Assembly: GCA_019828565.1 (NCBI GenBank) | Contig: JAHDYR010000024.1 | Coordinates: 1-64,000, forward strand | Source of the DNA: Carpediemonas membranifera BICM | Lineage: Eukaryota; Protista; Fornicata | Direction: 5' to 3' | DNA length: 64,000 nucleotides | Part shown: piece by piece, positions 2,709 to 28,672 of the stretch | Position numbering within the stretch: position 1 is the first letter of the stretch | How the letters are laid out: each line of letters starts with the position of its first letter | Position numbers and translations under genes: made by a program | Notes under the pieces: model-generated | What the model was told of the DNA's origin: nothing | The model's database searches: none | The model's input: the letters and a program-made list of their open reading frames with translations, nothing else

Positions 2709-2920
2709 CCCACATTGCCCAATAAACGCGTAATAGAAACGTCTCCACACCTTCCCCACCTTCCCCAGCGGGGACGACAGTCAATCTACTGCAGCGAATT
2801 TGCTGCCGTGGGATGATGTTGACCCCAGTGAGTGGCTAACCCCGGCCGGCCGCTGTATGTAGATAAGCCGCAAGTGATTAAATTACATAAAGGCTGGATC
2901 GCTTCTTCCTTCCTTTACTC

Positions 2921-4157
2921 TCACAATGCCAGACTCGGATTCAGTGCCAGGAGGCTTTCCTTGCAGACCTGGCAAAAATAAGAACCTGGCAACGGTTCCA
3001 TCAATCGAGGTCTCCCACATGGCCACACCGCATGGCTTGCAATACCAAGATTTGCACATGTTGCAGAAGAAAGAGTCCCTTCCCTTTGACGATTTGATCT
3101 TAGCCTTGCAGCGGGTGCATTCAGAAGCAGCAGCACAATCCGGACACGTGAAATTGGTAATGGCCTTCTTCCCATTGCTGAGCCACCTCACGCACCTCCC
3201 ATGGTAGTAGCGGTTGCATGATCCGCACTGGGCGAAGTCAGTTTCGTTCTCCGGATTGCCCAACCAATCCGGGGAAGTGCAATGCCCGCAGCAAAAATGC
3301 TAGTTGACGCATAAACATATCGAAAGAAATCAGCGGACCTGTCTTCTCAGCAATGCTGACATCACTGTCATCACTGTCATCAGCAGTAGGACGCTTCAGC
3401 TCTTGCTGATGTGCCATATCGAACTTTCGTTCACCAACAACGTATTGGTGAAGATCCTGGATCATTTGGTGTTGGACCGAAGGATTTGTCAGAGAAGAGT
3501 CACGAGCGGGAGTCTTCGCATCTCTTTCAGTCTTAATGGATCCAAGAAGGCTGTTATCGTTGAGCAGTGACTCAGATTTGATTGGAGACGCAGGAAAGCT
3601 GGGTTCATCTCCCCTCAGCCTTTTTGGTCTGCACGCTTTGCTTGTGATATCTTTGCCTGGCATCAAGAAGTAGACCTGTCGGGAAGATGAACTTCATCTT
3701 CTTCAGGTTCTCGATGTCCATATCAGGGGCGTTGGCTAGTCTGAGGACATTCGCCATCTCCTTCATGAAAAACTGACAGATCCTTGGCGCTAGGCTTCTC
3801 TTTCGGCGTCAACTGGTGGTAGATGATCGGCTTAGTCTTGGTGTAACCGAGCTTATAACCCAAATCTCTCGCCCAGTCTAGCAACCCCTTCTCGTTGAAG
3901 TTCTTCTTCTTCAAAGCAACAAAACCACCGTACACAGGGACAAGCAAGTTCGACACGACAGTGTTATAGGCCGATAACACGGAGTCTTTGGGCATTCCCA
4001 GTGAGAGGCCACTGTCTACGTCGATATCATCGACAATGACAAAGAAGCATGTCAACATGGCCCGAAAAAGTGATCTTTGAAAGATTTGTAGTAAGATCAT
4101 GACCAGTGAACGCGCGATAGGTTCCAGGAGACTTCTTTTTTTCGGCACTTGCTTCAT
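2921..4157 (-). CDS. Double PHD-finger protein (paralog 1)
   Basis: Removing the 39-nt intron 3300-3338 gives FCCGHC..W..AQCGSCNRYYHGRC..FTCPDC followed by CTRC..CNMC..WYC..C..CQVC, matching the paralog at 23606-24887. Frameshifts lie in homopolymer runs. Confidence 0.8.
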
Positions 4158-6267: not shown

Positions 6268-6837
6268 CTTTTTCCAAAAATTTCACAGCAATGCAGTGTT
6301 ATTTTTCAGAGTGAATATTTTTGTTCTTTCGAAATAAGATGCAGGAAGAGCTTTTAGTATATAGCACGTACGACTGAAGGCATTTTTAAGCATGTTTATA
6401 GCATGTATATGCAGGTAGTTGATTGTAGGTACTGTCAAAATTTTCTGTTTACGCAAAGCAATATAAATATGCCAATTCATCACGTAAAACTTCTGGAGCC
6501 GTGTTCAGACAGTCAGAGAACCCACCATACCGCTTTTCAGCCAGAATAGACTCAACCCTAATTTTTGCTTTTACGTATATCTCGGTAAATAGACTCGAAC
6601 GATATGTAAAAAAATCTTGGATCCGTCCTAACATATCAAATACTACACATATACCAAGTTTCAGCCAAATCCAAGCCGAGAAGATCACCCCCGTCAAGCC
6701 CATGGACAATGGTAGGTCAGCGTGGTTTTGGCGAAAATAACAGTGCATTGCTGTATTCCAAATGTATGACTTATAGTGCAATGCACTGTTATTTTCGCAG
6801 AGCCGAACTTGGACGTGGCCAGAAACTGACATCGCTG

Positions 6838-6888
6838 AAAAGCTCAGAGACGTCGTTATATCATCTATAACGGCATCTCTGAGCTTTT
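6838..6888. repeat. Imperfect 23-bp-arm inverted repeat
   Basis: AAAAGCTCAGAGACGTCGTTATA-TCATC-TATAACGGCATCTCTGAGCTTTT, 2 mismatches. Confidence 0.8.
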
Positions 6889-7601
6889 AAGCACACAGTT
6901 CTCATCCTGACGTGGAGATTGATGCTTGATAAATTGAAGAATCGACTAGGAGAGCTCTACGCTTGCATGCAGCCTTCTATTAGGTTGTTGATGTTGGTTA
7001 TATGCTTCTTTTTCGTTCTCGATGCGTGTGGATGAGTATTCTGTTGCAAGATTCATTTTGATGGACTGATGTTGGTTATAGAGGATAAAGGCACCAGAAT
7101 GGATCATATGCATGCTATAAACCGTTCTGTGCCGTTGGTCGGACGGCTTCAGAAGTCATTGTATAGAAGGAGATCGTTTAATGGTCATCACATACATCAT
7201 GGTATTGCGGGGAATCATGGTAGTGAGGTGATTCGATTTCGAGACTCGGTGGTGAACTGCGGACAGGAGATGGAGGCGGACTTACAACAGGCGTGGCGGG
7301 GGCTGGCGTTGAAGGCGGAGTGGGGGATGGAGACGGGCACGGAGATGGATACGGCGAGCTGTACGGCATACACCTTACTGGAAGCGGCATCTCCGGCCAC
7401 TTGACGAACCTGCACCGCCGGGCAGTTAAATCTTCAGGCCTCTTCTTGTTCCGTTTTAGTTTCGTCATCGCTCTGTGCAGAACAAGACGCAATTTTCGCA
7501 CAACATTTACGTATTTACCCAGTTATGTGTCGGTATATGTTCAAACCACGGCCAGGCCCCACCGGGGGTGAGTGTTGGGCATGCGCCGGTGTTCTTAGGA
7601 C

Positions 7602-8351
7602 TCATGGTTTCGAGTTCAATGCTACGACCCTTTCGAATCGCATCTCTAAACTTTTCCTCCAGGACCCCAGTTGGCAGCAGTCGACCATTCTCTTTCGCTG
7701 ATCTACAGAGAGTAAGACCTGTTCAGTGTCATCTAACAGAAGCGGACTCGGCTTGGCGACGCATTCATGCACGCGCATGATGACCTTGAGCTTGTCAAGA
7801 CATTCGGCAGCAGTGGGACGCTTCGTTGGGTCGAAGTGGAGCATCTGCATTGCCAGGTCGTACATTCCGAGGCAAGTGGGTGGCGTTGTGCCGCGAATCG
7901 GTAGTGCAGAGTTCACGTTCACGAAGTTGAGACAATCTCTGAGCGGTTCGAGTGTCTTACGTGACAACTGCAACTGCCCACCATAGAAGTGGCACCAGTT
8001 CAGCAAGCTACCAAGCTTCAGCATCTTATTCTTCTTCTTGTTGTCGATCTGCGCCATGTCAGTCACCTTCGCGGCAAAGGGGGACTTGGGGAGACCGTAA
8101 AAGAGCAATGACTACACCGCACGAGTAAATGTCGGAGGCAGGTGTGACGACATGAAGAACAGGCGGGAAGAGCCGATGCAGTCATGCGCGTATGCTTGGA
8201 GGTCTCGTATGGCGCTCGTTGACGGCGGAATGACCGAACACGAACACACTTTGAACATTTCTGGGGGTAAATACCCATGCGTGCCGCGATATTCGGATGC
8301 CGATTTCAGTTCTATGGCCCAGTTCTCGTCGCGACAAGCCGGCTTCGTCAT
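7602..8351 (-). pseudogene. Protein kinase C-lobe remnant (paralog of 12508-13760)
   Basis: RGTHGYLPPEM, SDIYSCGVV, KSPF and MLHFDPTKRPTAAECL are spread over several frames; no HxD, DFG or N-lobe upstream. Confidence 0.75.
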
Positions 8352-8522
8352 AGCAGAACTTCTTCATCAACGAAGTCTGTGCAGGATATGATTGAAATGA
8401 TTGAAAAGAAACAGCCTGACATAAGACCCACCCAACCTTACATGGGTCATTGAAGGGTTGTGTGCCACGCTCTTGGTGCTGTGTCATTGCTGCGTATAAA
8501 CTGCTGGTATAAACTGCGTAGA

Positions 8523-9370
8523 ATGCAGCAAGAAAGTGGAACTGTCAACTTTTGCTGCGATTGCTTTCCGGAAGAGCTTGCGCGTCGTGTCTATGCAAAT
8601 TGGGCGGACATGGGCGAAGCCGCGATGAAGATAGACGCCTTGCCTTTCGATGATGACCAAATTGTCGAGCTTGACGGCCAATCGCTCATTTCTCTGAAGT
8701 GCAGCACATGCATGGTGTCAAAGGGCGATGACATGATGTATGGTTTGGTCACGGCTGGCGATGTTGATGAGGGAGAAGTGCTCGGGATTGCCAAGGGTGT
8801 TCTTAGCGATCAGCCTTCTCGGATTCAGCTATCGTCACAGCTGCACCTCATGACTCCTGATGAAGCATGCGTCAACAAGCTTTGCCATCATTCGGCTGCT
8901 GGCAACTGCAGGTTTGCCCTATTCAAGGTGGATAAGAAGCCGATCTGCTTCTTGGTTGCCACCAGCAAGATCCCAAAGGACAAGGTCATCCTTGAAGGTG
9001 GCGGCACTGACGATAATGTCTTTGTCGTGGTTAAGCATGCGAGGAATCGTGATGTACCGAAGGACGTGAAGCACTCAATTTCTCGCGTGGTCCAGGAGGA
9101 TGCAGAGAAGGCGAAGAAGTTAGATGTAATGAAGTCGAAGAAGAAGGCGAAGGCAAAGAAAAAGGAAGCAGACATGACGGAGGAGGAGAAGTACAGATTA
9201 GAGCAGAAGAAGCTAAGAAAAAGCATGCGCCAATGGGGAGCTGGGAGCCTTCTAAGAAGAAGAAGACGACTGTGAAGAGAAAGGGTACCAAATCGAGGTT
9301 GACGAAGAAGGACAAGGTGGCCATGACGCACAATGCGAAGACGTTGGACGAGTTCCTTAAACTGTTTTAA
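8523..9370 (+). CDS. Degenerate SET-domain protein with Lys-rich C-terminus
   Basis: YGLVTAGDVDEGEVLGIAKG, KLCHHSAAGNC (for RFINHSCxPN) and FLVATSKIPKDKVI (for AxrdIxxGEEL); the terminal FDY Tyr is absent. A frameshift near 9240-9250 extends the frame to the TAA at 9370. Confidence 0.7.
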
Positions 9371-9458: not shown

Positions 9459-10317
9459 TTACACTGTAGAGAACATACCGAGCTCTCTTAAAAACTGGTA
9501 AATCTCAACCTCCATCTCTTGACGAGCAATCTGCCGTTCTTCAGTCATGGAAAGATGGTTGCGAAGCTTCTTTCTCTCATCAGACGGCATTGTCAGGCAA
9601 GCTTCGTCGTAGGTGGCATTGCTCGTGGACAGGATAAAGAAATCAGCATTGATCGCTTCAGGGGAGAAGCAGGGAGACAATCTTGTTCCAAGGGAGGTTT
9701 GGAAACACCTTCGCCAGGTGTTCGCGCAAGGCAGCGCGAAGATTGGTCGAGAAAAACTTCTCGTCACTGCGAGGAAGGCAGTACTTGGAGAATTTCTTCG
9801 TATCCTTCAGCTTCAGGAACCGACGCTGTTCTTCAGGATCCAGGCGAGCATGTGGCACATCTGGCGTTGCGTCAAGAGCAACCGCTAAGGTGTCAAGCAG
9901 TGTCTTCATATCTTCTGTCGCAGCAGTCTCAGGGTCAACGCTGCGGAAGGCATGCAGCGCTGATTGGTAAGCAGCTTCTGCCCGCGCTGCCACCTCGTCC
10001 TTCCTCGATGGGTTCATGTGGACAGACTCGGACTCAGTGTTGAATGCAAGTCGGAAACCAGCTCGTGTTGAATTCTTGACCATCTGCTTGAAGTTGTGCG
10101 CCTCCGTCTTCTTGATGCACGACAGAATAGTTTCTTGGATATCAGCATCAGCCTTTTGCAGGACTGCCGTGCAATTCTCCAACGCGGCCTGAGACAACGG
10201 CTTGTAGGTGCGGTACGACGAAGTATTCGCTCTCCGCGCAGCTATCGCTGCTAACTGCTTGCGAGGCGCCTTTCCACCTTGCGTAGGCCGGCGAGCCGTT
10301 TGCTTTGTTCTAGCCAT
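9459..10317 (-). CDS. Histone H3 N-terminal tail mimic fused to an unrelated helical domain
   Basis: [30 protein letters not shown] vs H3 [29 protein letters not shown]; no histone fold follows. The C-terminus probably continues in ORF 9459-9767 after a slip near 9665. Confidence 0.9.
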
Positions 10318-10379
10318 CGTCTTCTGAATGCAGAATTATATGCAATACATTTCTCACATAAAGCTGCTTTTAAAGTGCG

Positions 10380-12060
10380 ATGCCATTTTCTCACCCTCAA
10401 TTTGGCATTGGCGTCATGAACGACGATCAGACATTTTTCAATGCAATGGGGTGGAGAAATCGATATCTGGATGGATCAAAGCTGTTTGAATGTGTCTGTG
10501 GGGACATCAGTAGCGAAACACGCAACGTCGGTTTTCCCTCGCCATCCCGACGTCACAAGTGCACCCGTACTGCACTGGCGCTGAAGAATACACGTGTCCT
10601 CATCGTGTTCGAGCCAACCTATGGGTTCGTTGCTGGAGATAGCAGGCAGTTTTCGATTGATGAATCTGTCTCCATTGGAGGGCACGCAGAACGCATTCGT
10701 CAGATCTTTGCGGCAATGCATAGCGAGTATACGGTTATCGAGACGGCCCAGTTCGAGAACGAGGACGATTTTGAGGCGAAAATCAAGGAATTCGGCAAGC
10801 TGTATGGTGACTATGAGACTTTTTTTCATTATCACTGGTCACTCGGACTCTGATGGTCGGTTTGTGGTCGATGCCCGCACGATACCAGCCATCTGGACAA
10901 CTGCCTTCGACTTCATCGAGGCAATTCTGAAGAATTATGAGAGTCATGTCTGCAAGTTCGCCCGAATCATGGGTGTGTATATTGCCGCCTGCCAGTCTTC
11001 CGCCCGTGACCCACGGCCGATCTTTCAGTTGTATTCTGGCAAGTTCAAGTTCACAATGCAACGGTGTGTGGTGCTTTTGACACCAGATGAGCTACCCGCC
11101 GTCGAACTTGCCGCCCATGACGCCACGTGGCTCATCAGAATCATGACTCAGCCAGATCACCTCCATGAGATCGCGCAATTCTGGTTCTGGATGTCCAAGC
11201 TCTCGTACATGAAGCGAAGAGTCATTATCGCAAGACCTGACGGTTGTGCAAAAGCGAAGATCGTATCGGAGGAAGACGCAAGACTCCCGCCGCGTTGTTA
11301 TCCTTTGCTTAACAAGGTTTACCGGCCTGCGTACCCGAACTTCGATTCCACTGCTAAGATCGTCGACTTTCGCTCTCTGCTCTTGATCAAGTCTGAACAC
11401 GAGTCATCTGTGGCCATTGAGTCTCACATCAACAATATGATTGAGAAGAAAGAGATTCCAATCGGCACCAGCGGTCAGCCACAGTCCTTCGTTGAGGAAA
11501 TTGTGAATGGGTTGAAGTCATGGAGGAAATACTCGACACACCGTGATGGCAGCTGTGTTGCGCACTGCTGTTGCATGATTAGGGACGGCCATTTCCGGGA
11601 TATGACCACCCTGACCCACAGAACAGATCTTGAGGCAGCCATGGCTTTGCGTGCCGAGCTGGTGGAAAGCCGGGTGAAGCGGACGGCTCTGACGGAGGAT
11701 TCCGCTAAGGCAGAACTGTTTTCCAAGATGGGCTGGCTTACCGATGATGCTGTGCGAGAGTTTTCCATGATCTACATGCGTAATGTCATCATGGTGTGCA
11801 ACAACGGTAATAATTCTACAGTGATATTGTTCACACATGGTCACCAGTTTTGGGGTTTGTACCCTTCTGGCGACTCAGCTGCTGATCGTTGTGAGAATTT
11901 CCAGGTGTTCTGTTCCAGACATGGCATTACCCACTTTATTCTGCTCCAGGACGACCATGCGGAACTTGTCAGTCTCCCAGAGGGTATCAAAAGAAAAGCG
12001 CAAATACAGGAAGGCGCTCCGTCATCCACAAGTAGACAAAAAGATGATGAGAGTGATTAA
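10380..12060 (+). CDS. Caspase/CHAT-like peptidase + OTU-like cysteine protease fusion
   Basis: ORFs 10380-10853 and 10594-12060 join at the T run near 10820. FFIITGHS and VYIAACQS fit the caspase-hemoglobinase His/Cys dyad; RDGSCVAHC...GWLTDDAV...ILLQDDHAE fits OTU Cys/His. Confidence 0.65.
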
Positions 12061-12507: not shown

Positions 12508-13760
12508 TTACATATCAATAATCAATGATAGATCACGATGAACCCTCCAAACTCGTCCTCTTCTCTTTGTGTGGGGGTTCATGATGCTTCTGTAATCTTG
12601 GTGGTGTGTCTTGCAAGTTATTGTTCGATTATCGTGAACCGGCATGCCACATGCAATGCATCGGCCAGCAAATCGGGTTTCTCGAAGTGCTTCAACGGTG
12701 AGTTTGGCGGCAGCGAGCGTTTCCTGAGAGATTGTCACCTGGTCGTTGATCATCAGTGGTGTTGATGCGAACGTTGCTGCTAGGGCGGCGATATCGTTGA
12801 GATGTTCAGCGCACATCAAAGCTGTTGGTCTATCCTCCGGATTATAGCTGAGCATCCCCATTGCAAGGTCATAAAGGCTCCTATACTGTGTCGGAGGGCT
12901 TCCTCTCGTGCAGAGAGTCGGATTGATCATCAAACCACGGGCTGCATTCTTCTTCTTGCTGTGTATCGTGATTTCGCGGCCGTAGAAGTACGCCATGTTA
13001 TATAGAGCGCCAATATGCTCGTCTGGGTTACTTGGCTTGCCACCATCCACTCTCACAGATCGAAATGGAGACTTATCCAGTCGCAATGCCATCATGAGGA
13101 CGATAACGCCGCAGGAAAAGATGTCGTATGCCGCATCAACTGTGTGCATGTTGGTGTTTCTGGTTGTGGTGTTCCTGGAAGCCTGGAAGGGGTTCAAATT
13201 CTGTGGTTCCCGCATAGCTACTGTACAATGCTTCGATTTCCGACTGAGTTCGTCGGCACGAAGCTCGGGGGGATAAAACCAGGTGTCCCTCTCATGTCTT
13301 GTCCCATATACCTGTTAATCCCAGTAGGAGCCTCTATTTTGATGGCAGAGCCGAAGTCAATGAGTAATCCACCGTCTTCTCGGTTGAAAAGGTAGTTGTC
13401 GGGCTTGATGTCGCCGTGGATGAATCCATTCTCATGCACATGGCTGAGAGCTAACAGTAAGTGCCGCAAGTAGCGACATTGATCCGGTACTGGTAGTGCC
13501 AGAACGTCTCGCCACGACATATGGTCAACAAAGCGAGTGGCAAACGCTTGATCGCTGTCAACAAAGCCCACATCGACGATTGTAACAATAAATGGGCTTT
13601 TCATTGCCTGAAGTATCGTCTTTTCGTGTGTCAGGCGAAGTGTCATACAGTTATCGACCTTGACGACAGTTTTGACCCCGCTAATGTCGGCAATGTACGT
13701 ATTACTGTAGTTAGTCTTGTGTAGTTGCGTCAAATCGGCAGCGGAGAGCTTAAAGACCAT
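12508..13760 (-). CDS. Cdc7-like Ser/Thr protein kinase
   Basis: VVK, HEKTIL, FVDHMSWRD, YLRHLLLALSHVHENGFIHGDIKPDNYLF, LIDFGSA, RGTPGFIPP(E), DIFSCGVI, YNPEDRPTA; single-base slip in the C run near 13270. A further 3' exon is possible. Confidence 0.85.
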
Positions 13761-13764
13761 TTCC

Positions 13765-13829
13765 ACAGACGTCTGTTGCAAAAATGACTTTAAAGTGCGT
13801 TTTTGGCAGATTTTGCAACAGACGTCTGT
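13765..13829. repeat. 19-bp-arm inverted repeat just upstream of the kinase start
   Basis: ACAGACGTCTGTTGCAAAA (13765-13783) and TTTTGCAACAGACGTCTGT (13811-13829). Confidence 0.85.
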
Positions 13830-14258
13830 TGAAATTGGTTTTGAGTACGAATTGTGAAATTTTGAGTCTATCTGCTGAATCAGGAGGCCATTTTGAGTAA
13901 TCTAAGACTCACCTCGAACATGTGTCAAATCTGGCAAATCAGAAGTCAATAAAAAAAGGGCAGAGAGGAGGAAGCGACCCATAAGGCGTACTTATGGACC
14001 ATTTCCTCCCCCCAGCCCGATTTTTGAGTCTGAACTCCCAAGGAATAATTGTCCCTATGTTACTTTTTTCTAGCAGGATTTAAAGCTCAAAACTACGCAT
14101 GAGTAGTCCTCATGTGTAGGCATGTATTCAACCTCATTTATAGATTATGAATACAGCTCGTTGTTGATTTTTTTTTCTTACCGAGTCGAAATGCTAGGGG
14201 AAAGCCCGAGGAAATTCCCCTACCCAATAAGGGAAATTCCTGAACCCTGGACAGTATG

Positions 14259-15188
14259 AAATCATCCTTTAGTGACGGGCATTCTCCTCTGCATTGCCGA
14301 GAAAAAGAGTTGATGTTGATTAGATGGTGACGAATGCATTACCGGACATTTGACGCGCACAACCTGCTTAATACTGCATAAAAGCATCGCTGATCGCTTT
14401 CTCTTCTGTTCTTCAACGCCCAAGGAGCGGCTTCCAGGTCGGCAACCGTTGCCGACCTGGACCCGTGCAGTTTATGCTTTTTCGGCCAACCGACGAAGTC
14501 AAGCTTGGCCAAGACACATACTGTGTACAAGGACCCTGGCAGGCTAGTTACGCCGCTCAGCCTCTGCATCCAGTTGATAATCACTCGCCATTTACTTCTG
14601 GTGCTTTTCCTGCTCTCTCTTCTCCATCACGTCGTCATACTCGGCCCTCGTCAGCCTCACAGTTGTCATCCCGGCATCACGGATGTGCTCAAAGGCCTCA
14701 ACGGGCAGCTTCGGCATCCCGTCCTCGCTGTCGCTGCTGCTGCCCAAGTCTGACTCGCTCTCGTGATAGCGGCGAAGGCGAATGCGTCTGCTGGGCACCC
14801 TGGTCTTCATAGAGTCATAGATCGGAGCGAGCCCACTTCCATTGGCCCCGCTACGGACACCCTCATCGGTATCTCTCTCAGACATATCACACTCAACCTG
14901 TTGTGACTGAAGAAATGACAGGTTGTCGACGAGGCTATCCTCGGCATCGCTGTCTGAACTCTCCTCATCCTCCCACTCTCCTTCCAGCATCTCCAACCCG
15001 GCCTCATCGTCAAACTCGCCCTCCACTGCGGTCTCCGGCATCTCTGCCTCGCCAGCTGTCTCGTCAAACAGCGCCTCATCGTCAGACTCACCCTCCCCCG
15101 TGTCGACCCCCATCGGGATTACGCTGGTCGTGGAGCTGGACCATCCTCATCCTGAGCTTTTTGTAAAGCCACCAGGTCGGCAGAGCTT
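14259..15188 (-). repeat. Inverted near-identical duplicate of ~22366-23313 (3' half of the YR-like gene plus the palindrome module)
   Basis: ORFs 14592-15113 and 14339-14584 are almost identical to the C-terminus of 21562-22980 and to 22988-23233. Confidence 0.95.
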
Positions 15189-15253: not shown

Positions 15254-15658
15254 CCTCATAAATCTGAATCATCTTCTTGTCTTGCTCCCGATGTTGTCAT
15301 TGCTGTTTTCGTGTCCACAAGCATTCCAGTCTCATTATAATGTTTATTCAGTACCAAATCATCCTTTAGTGACGGGCATTCTCCTCTGCATTGCCGAGAA
15401 AAAGAGTTGATGTTGATTAGATGGTGACGAATGCATTACCGGACATTTGACGCGCACAACCTGCTTAATACTGCATAAAAGCATCGCTGATCGCTTTCTC
15501 TTCTGTTCTTCAACGCCCAAGGAGCGGCTTCCAGGTCGGCAACCGTTGCCGACCTGGACCCGTGCAGTTTATGCTTTTTCGGCCAACCGACGAAGTCAAG
15601 CTTGGCCAAGACACATACTGCGTACAAGGACCCTGGCAGGCTAGTTACGCTGCTCAGA
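15254..15658 (+). repeat. Palindrome-module copy 2
   Basis: Matches 17999-18320 and 14259-14558; contains the 29-bp palindrome at 15530-15558. Confidence 0.95.
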
Positions 15659-16548
15659 CTATGTCTAGAGACGTTCGGCTGGGCTCTGCACGGATGGAAA
15701 TGAACACTATCACGTCAAGCACCCAACAGCAAGAGACAACGGCTTTTAAGGAAGCTTTTGAGCTCTTTATGGACAAGTACTCGCTATTCACAATCAGTAG
15801 GCTTAACGAGGGCGAGAATAACGGTAACACAGCCAAAATCAGGGCCGATGTCCGCAGCTCGTTCTTTTCCGCTTGGCTATGCACTCAGTGTGGCAGTAAG
15901 TGGATGATGGAGAGAACGAACAGCCTTCTTGTGTCGTTCTCGGGCTCTGTGGCAGTCGACATTCAGACGACAGTCTTCGCAGGTTTCGGTGCTGGTGATC
16001 CGTCGTCAATGTCGATCGACACCACCCTCGCACTGCTCAAAGACGTGCAGGACTTGGTTGTTTGGTGTGACATTGCTGCTAAGGTGAGGCGCATGAGACT
16101 ACCGAGCGACAAGGTCAGGAAGGCGTGCATTACCATCGCACCGACGAGTGTGGCCAAGAGGGCTTACGCAATCGTCAGCCATCCTACTGCTTTCACGGTC
16201 TGGTGGGAGCACTATGCCCTTCGCAAGATTTCTCCTGAAGTCTTCAAGGACTTTATTGACTGGGCCAACTTTACGAGCACAGCCGATCTCGTCACTGGAG
16301 AGGTGACTGCTGTTCAGCTCACTGACACTGTGATGCACTATGCCATAGACTCTATCTCCAAGTTTGAGTCCGGCTATCACCTCACCAAGTGGGAGGAGCC
16401 GTGGGTGACCAGAACTTGGCAGAAACCGTGCGAGGCGACTGCAGACGCCAAACAAAAACAATCTGGTCGAAAACAAAACTACTCGCAGCTGGTATTGTCC
16501 GCAGCCTTCGCCTCAGGCTCGAAAGCTGTTGGAGCAGTTTACCCGTAG
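15562..16548 (+). CDS. Hypothetical protein (CxxC motif); first ~30 codons derive from the repeat module
   Basis: 328-aa ORF with CTQC; the real start may be an ATG at ~15661-15700. Confidence 0.55.
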   Translation: MQFMLFRPTDEVKLGQDTYCVQGPWQASYAAQTMSRDVRLGSARMEMNTITSSTQQQETTAFKEAFELFMDKYSLFTISRLNEGENNGNTAKIRADVRSSFFSAWLCTQCGSKWMMERTNSLLVSFSGSVAVDIQTTVFAGFGAGDPSSMSIDTTLALLKDVQDLVVWCDIAAKVRRMRLPSDKVRKACITIAPTSVAKRAYAIVSHPTAFTVWWEHYALRKISPEVFKDFIDWANFTSTADLVTGEVTAVQLTDTVMHYAIDSISKFESGYHLTKWEEPWVTRTWQKPCEATADAKQKQSGRKQNYSQLVLSAAFASGSKAVGAVYP

Positions 16549-17998: not shown

Positions 17999-18320
17999 CC
18001 TCATAAATCTGAATCATCTTCTTGTCTTGCTCCCGATGTTGTCATTGCTGTTTTCGTGTCCACAAGCATTCCAGTCTCATTATAATGTTTATTCAGTACC
18101 AAATCATCCTTTAGTGACGGGCATTCTCCTCTGCATTGCCGAGAAAAAGAGTTGATGTTGATTAGATGGTGACGAATGCATTACCGGACATTTGACGCGC
18201 ACAACCTGCTTAATACTGCATAAAAGCATCGCTGATCGCTTTCTCTTCTGTTCTTCAACGCCCAAGGAGCGGCTTCCAGGTCGGCAACGGTTGCCGACCT
18301 GGACCCGTGCAGTTTATGCT
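17999..18320 (+). repeat. Palindrome-module copy 3
   Basis: Matches 15254-15575; the palindrome at 18275-18303 has a central G instead of C. Confidence 0.95.
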
Positions 18321-18503: not shown

Positions 18504-20488
18504 TTAGTTCTTACGTCTCCTAATCTTCACCTGGGTCGGCTTTGAGACCTTCCGCAAAGTTGCATGTCGACCCATCAACTGTATCACGTAGTTGATGTCG
18601 AGCCTGGCGCACTCCGCCCTAAAACTCTCCAGCGCTCTACTCTGATCGCCATCGAAGGGACGCCGCACTGTCAATGCATTGCCCTTCTCGTTACGGTAAA
18701 TGTGCGTGATCATCTTCTCATCAATGTTGACAAGCATGGTCGGCTTCCCTGTCATCGAAGTCCACACTCTGATTGCTTCAACGCATGCCCATCTCGTCAC
18801 TGTCCCGTCACTATTGACGTGCCCAGGAAACAGCTCATCCAGAAGCTCTATCTCTGTCATCTTTGAGAATACGGCCATGGTCCTTGCGTGGGCGAGGAGC
18901 GTCTGGCGGTAAGCTGTCGCCTCATCCTCAGCCTTGAGCTTCTGCGACAAGGGCAATTTGCGTCTGAACGCAGTAAATGTTCTCAGACCCGACATCATCA
19001 TCAGGCAGTGAATGATGCAGTTCCCATAACCCAGGGTCGGATACGTAGGCCAACCTGAACTCGGAAGCCTTGTCGTGATGATCATGTCGAATGCCACAGT
19101 TCGGTTGTAGCGGGTTGGGTCAGACCTGGCGTTGACCACTCTTCCGCTCTCCTCGGTTTCACCCTCCTCCTCTGCCCCACCCTCCTCGTCTGACTCGGCC
19201 TTCTCTTCCTCCTGCTCCTCCTCTGACTTACTCTTGGCCGGAGAGTGCTGTGCGATGATATCCTTCATCTCAGGCGTAAAGTTGAGGTCTATGGGGTCTG
19301 CCAGGTCATTCGGAGCGGTTGCTTGTGCAGACGCTGAGCAAACATCCTCGTCGTCGCCGGAGTTGCCGCCCTCGAGGTCGCCAAAGTGCAGCTCCTCCAT
19401 CAACTCATCCGCCACTGGCTCCTCTTCCTCCTCTGACTCGACCTCCTCCACTGGCTCCTCTTCCTCCTCTGACTCGACCTCCTCCACTGGCTCCTCTTCC
19501 TCCTCTGACTCCTCCTCCGAGTCCTCTGGCCTGGCCTTCTCGGGCGTGATGATGAGGGCCTTGCGCTTCACAGACATGGCTGCCTGCGCCTCGTCCGTAT
19601 CGCGTCGGGGACAGGAAGTCCTGGAGACTGTGCCAGACTGTGGCGGGATGGGGCTGCATGGGAGTGATGCATCCATGGACTTGTCAGCGTCATAGGCTGC
19701 CTCTCGCTCAGCCTGCTGCTGCAGAAGGCGTCGATGCAGCGTGATGACTTCCTCACTCTTTGCCGTCAAGCTCTTCCTCAACTGCTTGACTCTCTTCTTG
19801 TATCCTCGAACAATTTTGTGATAGTAATCGATGATAGCGCCAGTACCTGGGGGGAGCAGGGGCGTACCTTCTCCCGCGGGGGTCTCCAACCATTCCAGGG
19901 CGATGATGTACTCTTCGAAGTACGAGCGGCAGGAGTGCTTCATGTAAGCAAGGTCTGCCTCCTTGCTGCGCACCCTGGCAACCATTGCTGTGACATGGTC
20001 GCGCACAAGCGCGTTGGTGGATGTCGCGTTGCGCCACGCCCGAACCTTGACACTCAGCGCCTCTTTTTCGATACGCGCGCCCTCATTCTCCTTGGCATAC
20101 TCAGCCCTCTTGGAGTTCTTGAAGGCTGTGACAGCGGCCGACTCAAACGCCTTCATCTCCTTCTCCGTGAAGATTGCCTCGATGTTCTCGTTCGAGGTCT
20201 TATCCTGCACCTGCTGAGACAGCAATGCCTCGAGTTCTGCCTTCTTCTCGCCCTGAATCTCGAAATATGAGCACAGGTGGTTAAAGTTGATCCCTATATA
20301 AACATTTGCACCAATTACGTACCGTTCTTGACGACTATATCGAAGATATCGTTCTCGTCGAGCAATTTGTCCCGAAGAACGGCACTCTTCGCCTTGTTTG
20401 TCTTCTTCTCCTTGAATTCGGTGATAACGGCCTCAATCACATCATCTGAGGTGCTCTCGATCCACTCGTGAAGGAATTCGAACGTCAT
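18504..20488 (-). CDS. Coiled-coil/acidic protein with C-terminal OTU-like protease
   Basis: 573-aa ORF plus an upstream exon (MTFEFLHEW); GYGNCIIHCL...RWACVEAI...VIQLMGRHAT fits OTU; 36-bp tandem repeat encoding EEEEEPVEEVES at ~19412-19519. Confidence 0.7.
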
Positions 20489-21618: not shown

Positions 21619-22980
21619 ATGGAGGCTGTAGCGGCAATAGACGAAGATATCATGAAGCGTTGGTTGAAGAATGTTCCAACCAAATCGCGTACGAACTACA
21701 ACAAGCTTCTGAAAGACGTTTTGGCCAGAATTTGTCAGGAAACCGCCACAGATATCCAGAAGGGCATCGCGATTGTTCGTAGTGACGAGCTGGTAACCCA
21801 TTTGCGCCGGTACCTCGCTGAGAAGCCTCTGGGGACGCAGAAGAAGATCGTTTCGGCTGTTCAGTCTTTCCGGAACTTCGACTTGCCACACCCCGCGAAG
21901 CCGTTGTCCTGGAAAGAGGAGGAAGAGGTGTCGCCTGCATCAGTTGAGAGTCTCCCCAGCCCGTATGGCGCCATTGCCATTCTGCTCAACCAGACGGGCT
22001 GGGAGTATTCGTATCTCCAAGGTAATCTCCCCGATGCGATAGACCTTACCTCGTGCCCGAGCTGGATGGGCTTTGGCACGCTCAAATCGGGATTCCCGCA
22101 GGCCAGTGCTGTATCGGAGGCGCTCAAGGTTCAGGGGTTGACGGTTCGCATGCTTCGCTTTGCGCAGCGGATCGACGTGTCCACCGATAGGATGCAGTCT
22201 ATCGGCACGCTAGAGCGCCGTGGCAGACCGCGGGAGAAGCCTCAGAAGGTCATTAAGGACAAGCGCATCAGCCTGACCGATGAGCAGTTCAGGCACCAGT
22301 TGGCGTCCAGTCACTTAACGACCACGCGGCGCCCAACGATCCTCGATCTCAACCCGGAGATCCGAAGCTCTGCCGACCTGGTGCCGCCGACGCTCGATAA
22401 CTGGCTTTACAACAAGCTCAGGATGAGGATGGTCCAGCTCCACGACCAGCGTAAGCCCGAGGGGGGCGACACGGGGGAGGGTGAGTCTGACGATGAGGCG
22501 CTGTTTGACGAGACAGCTGGCGAGGCAGAGATGCCGGAGACCGCAGTGGAGGGCGAGTTTGACGAGACAGCCGGGTTGGAGATGCTGGAAGGAGAGTGGG
22601 AGGATGAGGAGAGTTCAGACAGCGATGCCGAGGATAGCCTCGTCGACAACCTGTCATTTCTTCAGTCACAACAGGTTGAGTGTGATATGTCTGAGAGAGA
22701 TACCGATGAGGGTGTCCGTAGCGGGGCCAATGGAAGTGGGCTCGCTCCGCTCTATGACGCTATGAAGACCAGGGAGCCCAGCAGACGCATTCGCCTTCGC
22801 CGCTATCACGAGAGCGAGTCAGACTTGGGCAGCAGCAGCGACAGCGAGGACGGGATGCCGAAGCTGCCCGTTGAGGCCTTTGAGCACATCCGTGATGCCG
22901 GGATGACAACTGTGAGGCTGACGAGGGCCGAGTATGACGACGTGATGGAGAAGAGAGAGCAGGAAAAGCACCAGAAGTAA
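21619..22980 (+). CDS. Degenerate tyrosine-recombinase-like protein with acidic C-terminus
   Basis: WLKNVPTKSRTNYNKLLK...LRRYLAEKPLGTQKKIVSAVQSF resembles the integrase SAM-like core-binding domain; LLNQTGWEYSYL resembles box I with the catalytic R lost; VRMLRF resembles HxLRH. Confidence 0.5.
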   Translation: MEAVAAIDEDIMKRWLKNVPTKSRTNYNKLLKDVLARICQETATDIQKGIAIVRSDELVTHLRRYLAEKPLGTQKKIVSAVQSFRNFDLPHPAKPLSWKEEEEVSPASVESLPSPYGAIAILLNQTGWEYSYLQGNLPDAIDLTSCPSWMGFGTLKSGFPQASAVSEALKVQGLTVRMLRFAQRIDVSTDRMQSIGTLERRGRPREKPQKVIKDKRISLTDEQFRHQLASSHLTTTRRPTILDLNPEIRSSADLVPPTLDNWLYNKLRMRMVQLHDQRKPEGGDTGEGESDDEALFDETAGEAEMPETAVEGEFDETAGLEMLEGEWEDEESSDSDAEDSLVDNLSFLQSQQVECDMSERDTDEGVRSGANGSGLAPLYDAMKTREPSRRIRLRRYHESESDLGSSSDSEDGMPKLPVEAFEHIRDAGMTTVRLTRAEYDDVMEKREQEKHQK

Positions 22981-23605
22981 ATGGCGAGTGATTATCAACT
23001 GGATGCAGAGGCTGAGCGGCGTAACTAGCCTGCCAGGGTCCTTGTACACAGTATGTGTCTTGGCCAAGCTTGACTTCGTCGGTTGGCCGAAAAAGCATAA
23101 ACTGCACGGGTCCAGGTCGGCAACGGTTGCCGACCTGGAAGCCGCTCCTTGGGCGTTGAAGAACAGAAGAGAAAGCGATCAGCGATGCTTTTATGCAGTA
23201 TTAAGCAGGTTGTGCGCGTCAAATGTCCGGTAATGCATTCGTCACCATCTAATCAACATCAACTCTTTTTCTCGGCAATGCAGAGGAGAATGCCCGTCAC
23301 TAAAGGATGATTTGGTACTAACAGGCTTTAATAAGCATGTCAAGCCTGTGATCACGATAACAGCCTTCAATAACTACATCAAGGCAATACATCAAGAAGA
23401 TTGTTTAAAGAGACGGCGGGGAGCAAGATGCAGGGAGAGCGGCAGGGAAACGAAGGCATGGGGACAGGAGCCCGAGAAGAGCGCCTGGAGAACGGTGAGG
23501 AAGAACGGCGGGGAAGAGCAGCCGGGCGCATGGGTACACAAATCTGTCATCATGTGGCATCAACATTGCCACAGTGGTCAACTCAATAACAAGCAATGTC
23601 TTCAT

Positions 23606-24887
23606 TTACTCACTGTTCTGGATCACCAATTCGTACGACGAGTAACAGTCGGGACAGAGCCGAATCTTGGGAATCGACTTGCCACAGATGACAATCTTCA
23701 GCAGCTCCATCTGTACGCAGTTGGCAGAGTTACAGAACCAGTGCCCGCACTGCCTACAGTGCACGGCTGAGTCGTTGCGTCGGCATGCGTAACACTTCTT
23801 CTCATTGAGGCAATAGCTACACGTGTATTTCCAGCGACCCTTAGTGGACTCGGCCCAGTTCTTGTTCTTTCCAGTCTTAGGCCGGGGAGGGACACAGCGT
23901 GAGTTGTCGTGGAAGTTCACTTTGCATTCCTGGCAAGTCACAAACTTTGACGTCACGCGATTGTCGATCCAGTCCAGACTGTGGCAATGGCCGCAACAGA
24001 AACAAAGCAGCCTATTCTGAATGTCGAGAATCGAGAAAGAATCATCACCGACCTCAGACACATCGTCATCGTTGTCCCCTTGGCTGGCCAGACGTGCCTC
24101 CACGGTGGCGAGCCTCTGATCGACACTCATCGCGACACGGTGAACATCGTGCAGCACAATCGACTCGCGAGGCGCTTGAGGGGAAGCTGGAGAGGGAACC
24201 GAAGTGGGACCGGACGATGAGTGCAGGAAAGGCTCACTTTTCACGCAAAGCTCTTGCTTCACGTGTGTAAGGGCGGGGGTGGCAGGGTTGGGGATTTCAA
24301 CTGTTCTGCACTTGCCCACAAATCTCTCCGGGTCATTGATATCGGGCACACAGAGATTAAAGTCTCGGGAGTCGAGATTATCTGGCACAGGAATATTGAG
24401 TCTCGACAGGACGGATCTGATCGCGCTGGTTAGCTCCGAACGGACTGGGCGAGGGCTCTTGCAGAGAGCATGGACAACCTTGGGTTTCCCGTCAGATATG
24501 GCCACAGTCACCCCCATCGTCTCAGCCCAATCTCGGACGTTCTTCGCAACAACCCTTCCCATCGAGACGCCAGGTTTCAACTTCAGCTCATCGAGGAAGT
24601 CCGGTGTTTCGGAGCACGGCTGAAGAAACGACACGATGATGTGGTTGAACGCATTTCCGAGCTTTTTTGATGGACAGGCCAGTTGGGTCTGAGTCAAAGA
24701 CGTCAAACGCAAACGTGAAGAAGGCCTTAAGCATGCCCATCATGAGAATTGACCGGCAAGTACTCAAAGCGGTTGTGTTCCACTTCGTCATCGGTCTCGA
24801 TCTCTTAGAAACAGCCTTAACTGCATGATCGTCCGCCATGTTCTCATTTACGGCCGCGCGCTTCGTTTCTAGCTCCGTTTCTGTCAT
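23606..24887 (-). CDS. Double PHD-finger protein (paralog 2)
   Basis: CFCCGHC..W..VTCQECKVNFHDNSRC..YTCSYC then CYAC..CRQC.HWFC..C..LCPDC; the N-terminal ORF 24588-24887 joins via a slip in an A run near 24665. Confidence 0.8.
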
Positions 24888-25077: not shown

Positions 25078-27600
25078 ATGCTAATACCGAAGTGGACGCT
25101 ATTACACGGCACTATTTATGCTCCTCAAGAGGATACTGGCATCAACACCATTCTATGCAGCGTGTACCTTTCCATTGACTCAGATAACGTCAGCACACAT
25201 CGGTTTCGTGTTTCCAAAGCTCCCCAACGCCGTGAGTTCGTCCAGGTTGTTCAAGAGTTGCTCAGTGCAGGATATATATGTCGCCAGGATGTTTCAAAGC
25301 AGCTGTACCCCTCTCCGACTGCCACATCTATCGCTGCGGAGAAGAGGAATCACACGACTTACCCAAGAGCCTACGTGAAGCATACATCCGCAGTTGACAC
25401 TCTCGCAGCCGAGAATGAGTGTCTACGGAAGCGTCTGGCCGACACGGAGCGCCTGATTCAACTAACGAACCAGCTCAAGTCCATCACAAACGGATACAAT
25501 GCCGTTAACGACGAGATCCGCATAATGAACTCTCTTGCAGGTAGGCTTAACCTTGATATTGTGCGGATATCTCCTGTTACCTCGAAGATCAAGTCTCTCG
25601 CGTGTAATATCCAGAATATGGAGGAGATAGAATCACTTCTCCAATCTGACACCGCTTGGAGGAGATTTATCCGCAGTCACGTTCCCGCCAACATTCAGCA
25701 CAGGGTAACGGCGAGAAGGTCTGATCAGGCCAATCAGGAATATGAGCTCGACCTCATCACCCATGTCGAAGCTCCTCTTGATGTTGTACGATCATCTATT
25801 CAGGGCGACTCGGCCCATGCAGAGCACGTTGCAGGAAAGATCGTCGTCTTCTATGACTCAGAGCAGGACCGTGAGACTCACTATAGCATCATGAAAGAGC
25901 AAGGCCTCACCCCTCGGATGCAGACGAGTGCAAGATATACCCATGTATATCATGCATCATTTGATATCATGGAGTATTATCGCCAAGCGGTTGCATTCCC
26001 CGTATCGCTGGAGACGTCACGATCCGGGCGCAAGAGTGCAGCTCGGACATTAAGACGACAGAGTCATTCCGCTGAGACGGGGACGATCCCACTCGTGTTA
26101 GAGGTGTGGGTCGATGCGTGGAGAGGGCTGACAACCGCTGTTAAGATTCGTTTCCTCGACGACTCCCACAAAGTCTTTCCGTCTGGTGCGACTCCTCCTT
26201 TCCGGATTCTTGAATACAACGGCCCAGAAAGTCTCATCACTGAGCATTTTGCCTTCATTGAACAGTCCATCGAGAGCACACACCGCGAGGTGCTGGAAGT
26301 CAGGAACACGGGTCTCCTCTGCCGAGTAACGCGTGTCTTTATTATCGCTGACCATCCAGCCATGTCCAAGGTTTGCGGGGCACTCATTGGAGGCAATTAC
26401 CCCTCGCCATTCAGTCCCGTTCATTCGAAGAACAAGGGCTGGAGTCCCTTTGGTCGCACCCCGCGCTGCACCTTGGCAGATATCCTGCTGGCGAAGCATA
26501 AGTCACAGTTCGACACTATTATGGACAGAGAGGCCAAATGGGGATCCTTCTATAACCATCAGAAGAAGTGCATCGCTCCCACTTTGTTTGAGACGTCGAC
26601 TGCGTCGCTGCCCAGAGACTGCGTCTTCTTATTCCCTCCAATCATGCATGTCAGTCATGACTTTGTGTCGTTGATTCATGCCATGTGCCGCATGTTCAAG
26701 CCAGAGCCAATTGACCCAGAGAGCGACCCTCGTCAAATTAAGAAGGTGAAGGCAAGGAACGCGATGCTAGCGAATCTGGCGTCGTTTGAGCCACCCAGCC
26801 GTACGACGGGCTGCAACGAGCAAGTCAAGGGGAGAAAGATGATAGCATCGATTGGACTTAAGCTGCATCGTGCGTTCCCGCCACCCGTGCAGTCATTATT
26901 CATACTCGCTGCATATCTCCAGGAGCACTACTATTCCCACGAGGATGTAACTGAGAACATGGTCGTGTGGCATCGCTTGACAGCACTTCTCGTGCACCTC
27001 TTCTCTGTGACCATGTGTCTTAGCACATCTAACACGGTTGCCCCAGACATTCCGATCCGTCAACCATCTGCGACTCCCGATACGGCGCCGTGTGTTGATA
27101 CACTTCACGGATTGGCGCGTATTGCCGCGCTGCCGGAGATACAAGCGAAGACTCGGGCCTCCTTTGGTCGAGTCATCGAAGAGTGCTTTGAACGTGATTT
27201 CATTGGGAATCAGGAGAGTCGAGTGCGATTGCGTCAGAACCAGACGGTTCTTGAGAGCACTATTCTGAAGGAGCAGGTTGAGTTGCTGTTCAGATGCCTT
27301 CGTGGAGTGATTTCCTACGGAAGACGCGAAACAGATGTCCCACCCCAGTCACCCCTGAAACATATGCGCATTCATAAGTGTTGTAAGGATGCCAATTGGT
27401 GGCTTCGTATCCGGAGTGTGCATTCTAAGACGCTGACAGCGACTGAGTGCCAAAAGCTGCACATGGTGTTTACGAAGGAAGTCAACGGCCTATGGCGCAC
27501 TGTCTTGTCGAAAGCAGACTGTAGCTTTGACTCAGACTGGCTGGATGTTCCCATTCACGAGCAGGGACACACTCTTGATGTTTGCATATGCAAGAGATAG
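25078..27600 (+). CDS. DDE transposase, CMC (Chapaev/Mirage/CACTA)/Transib-like
   Basis: Intact ~840-aa ORF; LEVWVD (first D), VFIIADHPAMSKVCG..GGNYP (second D), FPPIMH and IEECFERDF (E) resemble motifs of this RNase H-fold group. Family assigned by eye only. Confidence 0.65.
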   Translation: MLIPKWTLLHGTIYAPQEDTGINTILCSVYLSIDSDNVSTHRFRVSKAPQRREFVQVVQELLSAGYICRQDVSKQLYPSPTATSIAAEKRNHTTYPRAYVKHTSAVDTLAAENECLRKRLADTERLIQLTNQLKSITNGYNAVNDEIRIMNSLAGRLNLDIVRISPVTSKIKSLACNIQNMEEIESLLQSDTAWRRFIRSHVPANIQHRVTARRSDQANQEYELDLITHVEAPLDVVRSSIQGDSAHAEHVAGKIVVFYDSEQDRETHYSIMKEQGLTPRMQTSARYTHVYHASFDIMEYYRQAVAFPVSLETSRSGRKSAARTLRRQSHSAETGTIPLVLEVWVDAWRGLTTAVKIRFLDDSHKVFPSGATPPFRILEYNGPESLITEHFAFIEQSIESTHREVLEVRNTGLLCRVTRVFIIADHPAMSKVCGALIGGNYPSPFSPVHSKNKGWSPFGRTPRCTLADILLAKHKSQFDTIMDREAKWGSFYNHQKKCIAPTLFETSTASLPRDCVFLFPPIMHVSHDFVSLIHAMCRMFKPEPIDPESDPRQIKKVKARNAMLANLASFEPPSRTTGCNEQVKGRKMIASIGLKLHRAFPPPVQSLFILAAYLQEHYYSHEDVTENMVVWHRLTALLVHLFSVTMCLSTSNTVAPDIPIRQPSATPDTAPCVDTLHGLARIAALPEIQAKTRASFGRVIEECFERDFIGNQESRVRLRQNQTVLESTILKEQVELLFRCLRGVISYGRRETDVPPQSPLKHMRIHKCCKDANWWLRIRSVHSKTLTATECQKLHMVFTKEVNGLWRTVLSKADCSFDSDWLDVPIHEQGHTLDVCICKR

Positions 27601-28672
27601 TAAAGATCGGATTTAGTCTCGCGGTCAATCTCACGTGGCCCAGAGCAGCGTGCTCCTGGAATCAACAGGGCATAAAACACCCTGCGTATTCCGGTAGCAC
27701 ACCGTTCTGACTCACGTCCGTCTCTGGTTGTCGTACAGGTCTATTTACGTGTTTGGCGATGGCGCTCCTGACATAAGCTTAATGGCGTGTCGTGGCTGTC
27801 AGTATGCTGCAAATGTCTCAGCGAGAAAGGAGTCACCAATCGCGTTCAGCTTACTTGTTTCTCGCCTGATACTGCTCGTAATATCGTTCAAGCGTGAATC
27901 TATGAAGTAATGGGACTGAATGGCCTCTATTGCGTCAATTTCCTGCGTAATCGTTGTTGAATGGTCTAGAATAGATGTTGCAGCTACTTCCAGCTCATGT
28001 TGCATGCTAAATGCTGTGTTTTGGACAATTGGTCGTGTTCAGGCAGAATTTTTTCGTGCAAAGTGCAGGCTAATACCCGTCCTTAAACTGTGGGATCAGC
28101 CGCTGGGTAAATATACTGAGAAAAAACCATATAGCTGAGTTCACTGTCTTGTGCTGAATACGGTGGCGCCATTTATTTCTCTGAATCGTCAAGTTTTGTC
28201 AGCGTTGACCGCGCAAGACCGGTCGTCCTTACGCGATGTCACCAACACCATCATATTCTTCCCCCTGACATTCTACGTGTCCCCCAGTCTGGATTCGTGG
28301 TCTGCAATATTCACAGAGATATTCGCCTTCTCTTTCGCGAATTTGACTCTGATCAAGTCGAAAAACGAAAAAACGACCATATCTCGAAATCTACACGTTG
28401 GAATCGGTACCAGAGTGATTTTGCGCATATGTACATCCCGTCAGCAGTCTGCAAAATCACTCTCGTACCGATTCCAACGTGTCAATTTTGAGATATTGCT
28501 CGTTTCATCCTTTTGCCTTAACCTGCGTCGCAAAGAAGTCGAAATCAGTGGTTAGACCGCACTGGACCTCTTGCAGGCTCTCTGCATACGCGCTTTAGTA
28601 TGCAATGAAGGTATTCATTTTCCCGTAAATTGTTTAAATTCAATGAATACTTCATTTTCGGTCCGGAAGAAA

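Follow-up and report, generated by a model that had tools for sequence, protein, structure and literature searches.

A histone H3-like tail without a detectable histone fold in a likely mobile gene cluster of Carpediemonas membranifera

Introduction

Histone mimicry has been described in viruses and in a number of host proteins, and EZHIP, an inhibitor of the K-to-M type, shares with the gene described here an H3-like peptide in which a target lysine is altered. Among host proteins, the H3TMs VRK1, BCL11B and PCLAF are non-histone proteins with a free H3-like N-terminus that retains R2 and K4, for which docking to PHD or Tudor domains is possible (PMC8166343). As that report presents them, these are defined by their first few residues, whereas the tail described here is a 28-residue homologous copy, likely carried by a mobile element. 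Among genomic parasites, an H3-like motif that competes for chromatin partners is found in the NS1 tail of influenza H3N2 (PMC6028506) and in SARS-CoV-2 ORF8, with its ARKS motif (bioRxiv 2021.11.10.468057). According to these accounts both are four-residue viral motifs and ORF8 retains ARKS; by contrast, our tail is long, has lost ARKS and sits on a transposon-like carrier. K-to-M oncohistones, such as the H3K9M that traps Clr4 (PMC5030085), similarly present an H3-like peptide with an altered target lysine. In our tail, however, both K9 and K27 are Arg, which is the non-inhibiting control substitution, and only K23I is of the hydrophobic type.

Two further systems resemble the setting of the gene. 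VANC of the VANDAL elements (PMC5735166; PMC10398659) is a chromatin-directed cargo that may counter silencing, and the chromatin readers captured by transposons (bioRxiv 2021.11.30.470311) are also chromatin-directed cargo of mobile elements; capture of PHD, chromo and SET domains is common according to the latter report. The parts of these reports that concern us describe no fold-less histone tail, and the element described here has separate cargo genes, not transposase fusions. No transposon-borne fold-less H3 tail was among the entries listed by searches of the open-licence literature; the supplements of bioRxiv 2021.11.30.470311 may list such tail fusions. The tail of our locus is a real and unusual feature, and would be a variant of histone mimicry in a likely mobile setting. 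An initial annotation had described the tail as having both of its silencing motifs knocked out, a story that stands only in part. If the reading that we prefer is true, histone mimicry and the capture of readers and writers by transposons are joined here in a long H3 tail that has no detectable fold and is encoded as separate cargo next to PHD, SET-like and kinase genes. Such a tail would represent a testable anti-silencing device of a eukaryotic transposon.

Results and Discussion

An H3-like tail opens the gene

The window, by which we mean the whole stretch of 64,000 nucleotides that was analysed, comes from the free-living protist Carpediemonas membranifera, in which a large part of the chromosome machinery usual in eukaryotes is gone. 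Positions 10228-10317 of the minus strand translate to Met plus 29 residues, an H3-like N-terminal tail which opens the ORF at 9658-10317 (-). Compared to residues 1-28 of H3 (the reference used here, not the host's own H3), 22 of the 28 positions are identical, with residues 1-8, 12-21 and 24-26 being those of H3. The tail differs by K9R, S10P, T22A, K23I, K27R and S28A, and by one extra residue, a Gln after T11. The tail sequence quoted in the initial annotation is identical to our translation, which also bears out the retention of T3, K4, K14 and K18; all the changes that it named (K9R, S10P, K23I, K27R and S28A) are correct, but T22A and the Gln insertion had been missed. H3 chains in the PDB match the tail with an E value of 2e-6, and an H3 profile aligns to it with a probability of 98% (hhalign), so that at the level of sequence the likeness to H3 is far beyond chance. 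No second such tail was found within the 64-kb window.

Since an in-frame stop is found seven codons 5' of the ATG, we consider this ATG to be the start of the gene. With respect to the features that define H3TMs, an Ala follows the initiator Met, whose removal is predicted, and Arg2 and Lys4 are both present. Inhibitors of the K-to-M/I type have Met or Ile at K9 or K27; here both positions are Arg, and the Ile is found at K23.

Extent of the gene and its only relative

The ORF comprises 219 codons, which encode the tail and a predicted helical body with no assigned family and one database relative. The codon usage of the body is of the coding type, as judged by a codon model trained on neighbouring ORFs. 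A further 66 codons in the +1 frame (9459-9659, minus strand), following a C run and then TGA, reached a codon score of 26.9, which was matched by 0 of 5000 shuffles. Because the coding signal goes on in this frame, the gene is probably about 285 codons long and broken once, and the additional 66 codons are likely its true C-terminus. The break at codon 219 may be a long-read (assembly) error, decay or a shifty stop. The CCC followed by TGA at 9658-9663 (-) resembles +1 shifty-stop sites, and programmed frameshifting may be involved. A search for intron-like routes round the break found no strong donor.

The only true relative of the body is another C. membranifera record, KAG9389682.1 (referred to here as P0003), which carries the automatic label "histone H3/CENP-A". 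It may be another copy of the gene, or derive from a different assembly of this locus; the public records of this species stem from a nanopore-based, polished assembly (PMC8516963). Over 127 codons, P0003 departs from the window frame by exactly three single-base indels and zero substitutions. The first indel, a one-base deletion, falls in codon 29 and results in a Lys at position 27. In codons 29-54, the window frame beats the P0003 frame by 10 bits under the codon model, which in calibration had picked the true frame in 56 of 59 in-sample windows. For this reason Arg27, as read from one sequence, is the more likely residue at this position, and the Lys27 of P0003 is less likely to be a true residue. 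The claim of a double knock-out is correct with respect to the substitutions, but its second half is weaker, K27R being seen in one sequence and near the edge of homology. The label "histone H3/CENP-A" is most probably wrong, and the frame of the record is broken. Relatives of the body were not found among 254 candidates from metagenome contigs (0/254), and the ESM Atlas returned no usable match for it; 41 viral loci match the tail gene by the tail alone.

No detectable histone fold follows the tail

An HMM built from 98 H3 cores gave the body 0.0 bits, a score reached by 694 of 2000 shuffles. When the body was read through the break and compared to a cleaner HMM of 40 H3-core sequences it scored -0.4 bits, versus 115-182 bits for three true divergent H3s. 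Aligning both body pieces to H3 with hhalign gave a probability of 0.1% each, no H3 core was found anywhere in the 64-kb window, and no Pfam family was found for the tail gene. The HMM, hhalign and Pfam tests of the body are all at noise level, in agreement with the earlier statement that no histone fold follows the tail, and by these profile tests the tail gene has no detectable histone fold and its product is not a histone.

Structure prediction was less informative. The single-sequence model of the body is helical, with a pLDDT of 45.5, and only generic helical bundles match it, the best with Z 8.7. Histones are absent from the best 50 fold matches to this low-confidence model, a listing which excludes nothing. 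Because the model is poor and its matches are generic helical bundles only, the predicted structure speaks neither for nor against a histone fold. We have considered that the protein might be a highly diverged histone variant with a body that is still histone-folded, as implied by the label of P0003. The predicted helicity of the body is consistent with this, and so is a weak hhalign extension of the H3 match to a YKP that recalls the YRP of H3, an anchored extension equalled by 15 of 400 shuffles. In the same test, however, equally high scores were obtained for 13 of 50 other body stretches. The noise-level profile tests and the lack of an H3 core in the window also argue against a diverged histone, as does the fact that the CenpA candidate of the genome paper is J8273_4235, whereas accessions near that of P0003 carry tags near 8430, suggesting a different gene. 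We consider a diverged histone very improbable. A by-eye likeness of the body to the H3 helices was gone after shuffling.

Other fold-less tails and the substitution pattern

For comparison, 252 tail-bearing proteins were fetched, 11 of which had no core score. Once the three records of the tail gene had been set aside, together with two partial H3s, a chimera, a fragment and a duplicate, three independent fold-less H3-tail fusions remained (P0084, P0117 and P0123/P0151), to which a giant-virus ORF in locus L011 is added; giant-virus and fungal proteins are among the fold-less H3-tail proteins found. Like the tail gene, each of these four joins H3 residues 1 to about 21-26 to an unrelated body. 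They differ from it in that their bodies are unrelated to its own, S10 is kept and none is known on a comparable element. K27 is absent in 4/4 and S10 is kept in 4/4. Because these four tails lose K27 but keep S10, the patch formed by K9R, S10P and the insertion is the distinctive part of our tail.

Some features of these and related proteins can be described briefly. The L011 ORF (4525-4962 of a giant-virus contig; 145 residues) starts with H3 residues 1-26, which are followed by an acidic part and then a basic non-histone body. In the other three, K9R tails are fused to a VWA domain (P0123/P0151), a protein that by eye is F-box-like (P0117) and a PF20150 protein (P0084). P0042 was rejected as a precedent, as it is a chimera in which the tail is joined to a bacterial integrase, and its cluster mate is without the tail. 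P0144 was rejected as a fragment of the folded P0148. The protein represented by P0148/P0144 is a variant H3 whose tail is duplicated and shows K9Q/S10P/K27T; a long insert precedes its histone fold, which is intact.

In a neutral-drift simulation with six changes, blocks 1-8 and 12-21 were both spared in 37 of 40000 runs and all six changes fell on K, S or T in 155 of 40000; when positions 27-28 were disregarded, these counts rose to 205 and 735 of 40000, respectively, for patterns that were picked after the data were seen. The K4 block and the K14/K18 block, whose lysines the initial annotation had described as kept, are thus cleaner than neutral drift predicts. The substitutions were also compared to two reference sets: 28 distinct tails of folded H3s from viral contigs (set A; 38 of 41 loci, with L011, L025 and L038 excluded for being fold-less, stopped or cut), and 71 distinct true H3 tails from a search with P0036 (set B). 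The numbers of tails with a different residue at K9, S10, K27 and S28 were 4, 2, 8 and 20 in set A, and 1, 7, 4 and 53 in set B, respectively; K9R rows from one word search, whose words had been selected for K9R, were kept out of these counts. All four positions were changed in 0/28 and 0/71 tails, and a null weighted by variability gives this combination a chance of 0.007-0.012. Since both the simulation and the weighted null make the pattern rare, we infer that selection has acted on it. In the folded viral-contig H3s (L001-L041), K18, K23 or K27 is often changed, with K23M in 4/28 and K27M in 2/28 distinct tails by automatic alignment.

The question is where this selection took place. Blocks 1-8 and 12-21 also show the best conservation in true H3s. 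Because no diverged relative shows selection on the tail gene itself, the preservation of these blocks may stem from selection in a donor histone, and this could be the selection that we see. The tail may have been copied from a divergent H3 variant of the host or the element that was already so changed, in which case the pattern was inherited and did not evolve to be a decoy, regardless of the present role of the fusion. The species is reported to possess three types of H3, some of them divergent (PMC8516963), and true H3s with similar tails exist in our set, namely P0148, P0036 (insertion before GG, tail end AAARRA) and P0008 (LAAIAA). Yet the 120 top-ranked matches to residues 1-40 (out of 240 candidates, 120-384 residues long) included no Carpediemonas H3 with such a tail, although an H3 that has the RRPTQGG words in common with it would be expected near the top. 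A host H3 was not recovered by this tail search, nor by the search that started from the look-alike H3 P0036. Inheritance from such a donor is, in our estimate, unlikely.

The tail could also be a captured 5' piece of an H3 gene that serves as a start site or a basic nuclear signal, or a decaying passenger, without a role in chromatin. Both tail-gene sequences and two neighbours contain frame breaks, five of the six tail changes are a single base change away from H3, and H3-tail fusions can be artefacts, as exemplified by the integrase chimera P0042. However, two independent records contain the fusion, and the changes avoid two blocks beyond the expectation from drift. The breaks, moreover, are located at short runs, as is usual for errors in long reads, and the public assembly of the species is nanopore-based. 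We therefore regard a captured or decaying piece as somewhat unlikely.

Neighbouring genes

The tail gene is arranged head to head with a gene at 10380-12060 (+), which is broken at a T run (10820-10826). The gap between the divergent ATGs (10318-10379) is AT-rich and likely acts as a shared promoter; its length of 62 bp, measured from ATG to ATG, is exactly that reported previously. The divergent neighbour had been described as a caspase-OTU gene. The gene is present where it was said to be, but "caspase" and "OTU" are motif-level labels, for which no support was found in Pfam, PDB and NCBIfam. They derive from sequence motifs only (Cys/His motifs for "OTU-like"), and the acidic protein encoded at 18504-20156 (-) was called OTU-like at its C-terminus in the same way. 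The C-terminal domains encoded by these two genes are mutually similar (pairwise E 3e-7).

On the other side, the tail gene converges on a gene at 8523-9275 (+), and the two stops lie 382 bp apart when the 219-codon stop is used. This neighbour, previously called a pseudo-SET gene lying tail to tail, is indeed convergent and weakly SET-like, but its Pfam SET match (E 0.015) is under the curated cutoff; SETD8 matches with E 0.18. A PHD finger is encoded at 2886-3299 (-), with a Pfam PHD match of E 2.7e-5 and BPTF as the best solved match (E 2.1e-6). In this finger Tyr replaces the Trp before the zinc-binding His, and the cage is partly kept. Its paralogue at 23606-24562 (-) is cysteine-rich and PHD-like (pairwise E 6e-9). 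The "own PHD proteins" which the initial annotation attributed to the element are therefore found, as one PHD finger and one PHD-like paralogue. The cluster also includes a protein kinase gene in two frames at 12508-13760 (-; Pfam Pkinase E 5e-17 and 3e-4) and a second, weaker kinase-like piece near 7602-8111 (Pfam E 0.15).

A proposed tail for active marks only

The explanation that we prefer, with a probability of roughly 0.38, is that the gene provides an H3-like tail carrying active marks only, which would dock the machinery of K4 and K14/K18. Its expression, binding and effect are all predicted. The protein of what is likely an element cargo gene begins with an H3-like tail minus K9, S10, K23 and K27, and the predicted removal of its first Met would expose a free ARTK end to be methylated at K4. 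The methylated end would be bound by K4 readers, either those of the host or the BPTF-like PHD of the element, and the K14/K18 block would draw acetylation machinery, while the helical body would link the tail to other element proteins or to DNA. The predicted net effect is that activating chromatin machinery is recruited or competed for, which would counter silencing; no inhibition of silencing enzymes would be involved. Loss of K9 would prevent the protein from receiving heterochromatin marks and from being recognised by their readers. The new RRPT may move the Aurora site to T11 instead of abolishing it. The host does have an Aurora kinase (PMC8516963).

Docking of H3TMs to PHD domains is described as depending on a free H3-like N-terminus with R2 and K4 (PMC8166343), and the exact N-terminal position, R2 and K4 are all found in our tail. 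That the same cluster also encodes kinases, a weakly SET-like protein and a BPTF-like PHD speaks for an active-mark-only tail as well. Against it stands the fact that both known sequences are broken as assembled, with one break in the window and three indels in P0003.

Besides docking to K4 readers such as the element's own PHD proteins, the initial annotation had offered a different mechanism, in which the tail is a decoy that binds K9/K27 methyltransferases without being modified and thereby inhibits silencing. In a variant of this mechanism, K23I would capture a K23 enzyme in the manner of a K-to-I trap. Neither ARKS motif is intact (weighted chance as given above, about 0.007-0.012), and three nearby chromodomain gypsy elements hint at a methyl-lysine heterochromatin in the host. 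K-to-I changes can inhibit SET enzymes, and K27I is a listed tumour mutation. In fission yeast, however, an H3 copy with K9M was dominant, while silencing was little affected by a K9R copy in trans (PMC5030085). E(z) is reported as absent from all metamonads studied, in a dataset that included C. membranifera (bioRxiv 2021.07.16.452543; PMC9018016), though other K27 enzymes are possible. In addition, Pro10 and the insertion should disturb the K9 recognition site. The K27 loss and the S28 change are not specific to our tail, as K27 is also missing in all four of the other fold-less tails and S28 differs in 20/28 and 53/71 true H3 tails. A decoy for K9/K27 methyltransferases thus finds little support, and we consider it quite improbable.

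The likely carrier element

Bases 1 to about 28,000 of the window have a GC content below that of the retrotransposon-rich right half. This part is an undescribed multi-copy cluster with paired paralogues, comprising two PHD-like, two kinase-like and two OTU-like genes, plus a RAG1/Transib-like ORF. In a copy look-up, 3 of 10 window ORFs were present in the protein collection, with cluster mates all from C. membranifera. Two of nine element ORFs were present, each in a 4-member near-identical cluster, the members being spread over contigs of five different lengths: a gene without an assigned family at 15571-16548 (+; 4 records on 4 contigs), and the acidic protein gene at 18504-20156 (4 records on 2 contigs). 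Dispersed near-identical copies are thus seen for two neighbours of the tail gene. Three further element ORFs were not found in the collection (0/3).

The 840-codon ORF at 25078-27600 (+) likely encodes a RAG1/Transib-like DDE transposase. RAG1 clusters dominate its named matches in the ESM Atlas, with a feature score of 0.93, where a score of 0.9 is reached by 4-10% of shuffled proteins. Searches of Pfam and PDB, and Foldseek with a model of pLDDT 35.9, gave no support for RAG1 or a transposase, and relatives were found in 0/120 cases among metagenome contigs. Neither terminal inverted repeats nor a target-site duplication were found within 1-29500, and the left end probably lies beyond the window. 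No genes for a capsid, a packaging ATPase or a viral polymerase were found among the Pfam-scanned ORFs of the window, which covers part of the element. The carrier is likely a recently amplified, putatively mobile large DNA transposon; alternatively, it may be an endogenous virus or a segmental repeat with dispersed copies.

Taken to its full extent, the argument would describe a giant RAG1/Transib-like transposon with a chromatin toolkit. Its tail would have been edited to accept activating marks only, be methylated at K4, read by the BPTF-like PHD and stay invisible to K9 writers and chromodomains, with silencing escaped by histone mimicry. We regard this complete scenario as rather unlikely.

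The cluster contains several repeats. A repeat unit that reaches a length of about 315 bp and includes a 29-bp palindrome occurs four times (14252-14566, 15349-15663, 18094-18320 and 23006-23319), with one copy partial and one inverted. A 7.3-kb block lies between the two arms of an 859-bp inverted repeat (14253-15111 and 22461-23319) and might be a segment that can invert or has been rearranged. Near-perfect long intergenic hairpins are located at 28379-28496, 13749-13845 and 6731-6892 (arms of 46, 35, 26 and 27 bp), and the one at 28.4 kb is close to the likely right end of the element. The remainder of the window, 29030-64000, is dense in retroelements, with three chromodomain gypsy-type elements and tyrosine-recombinase (DIRS/Ngaro-like) elements that have overlapping frames.
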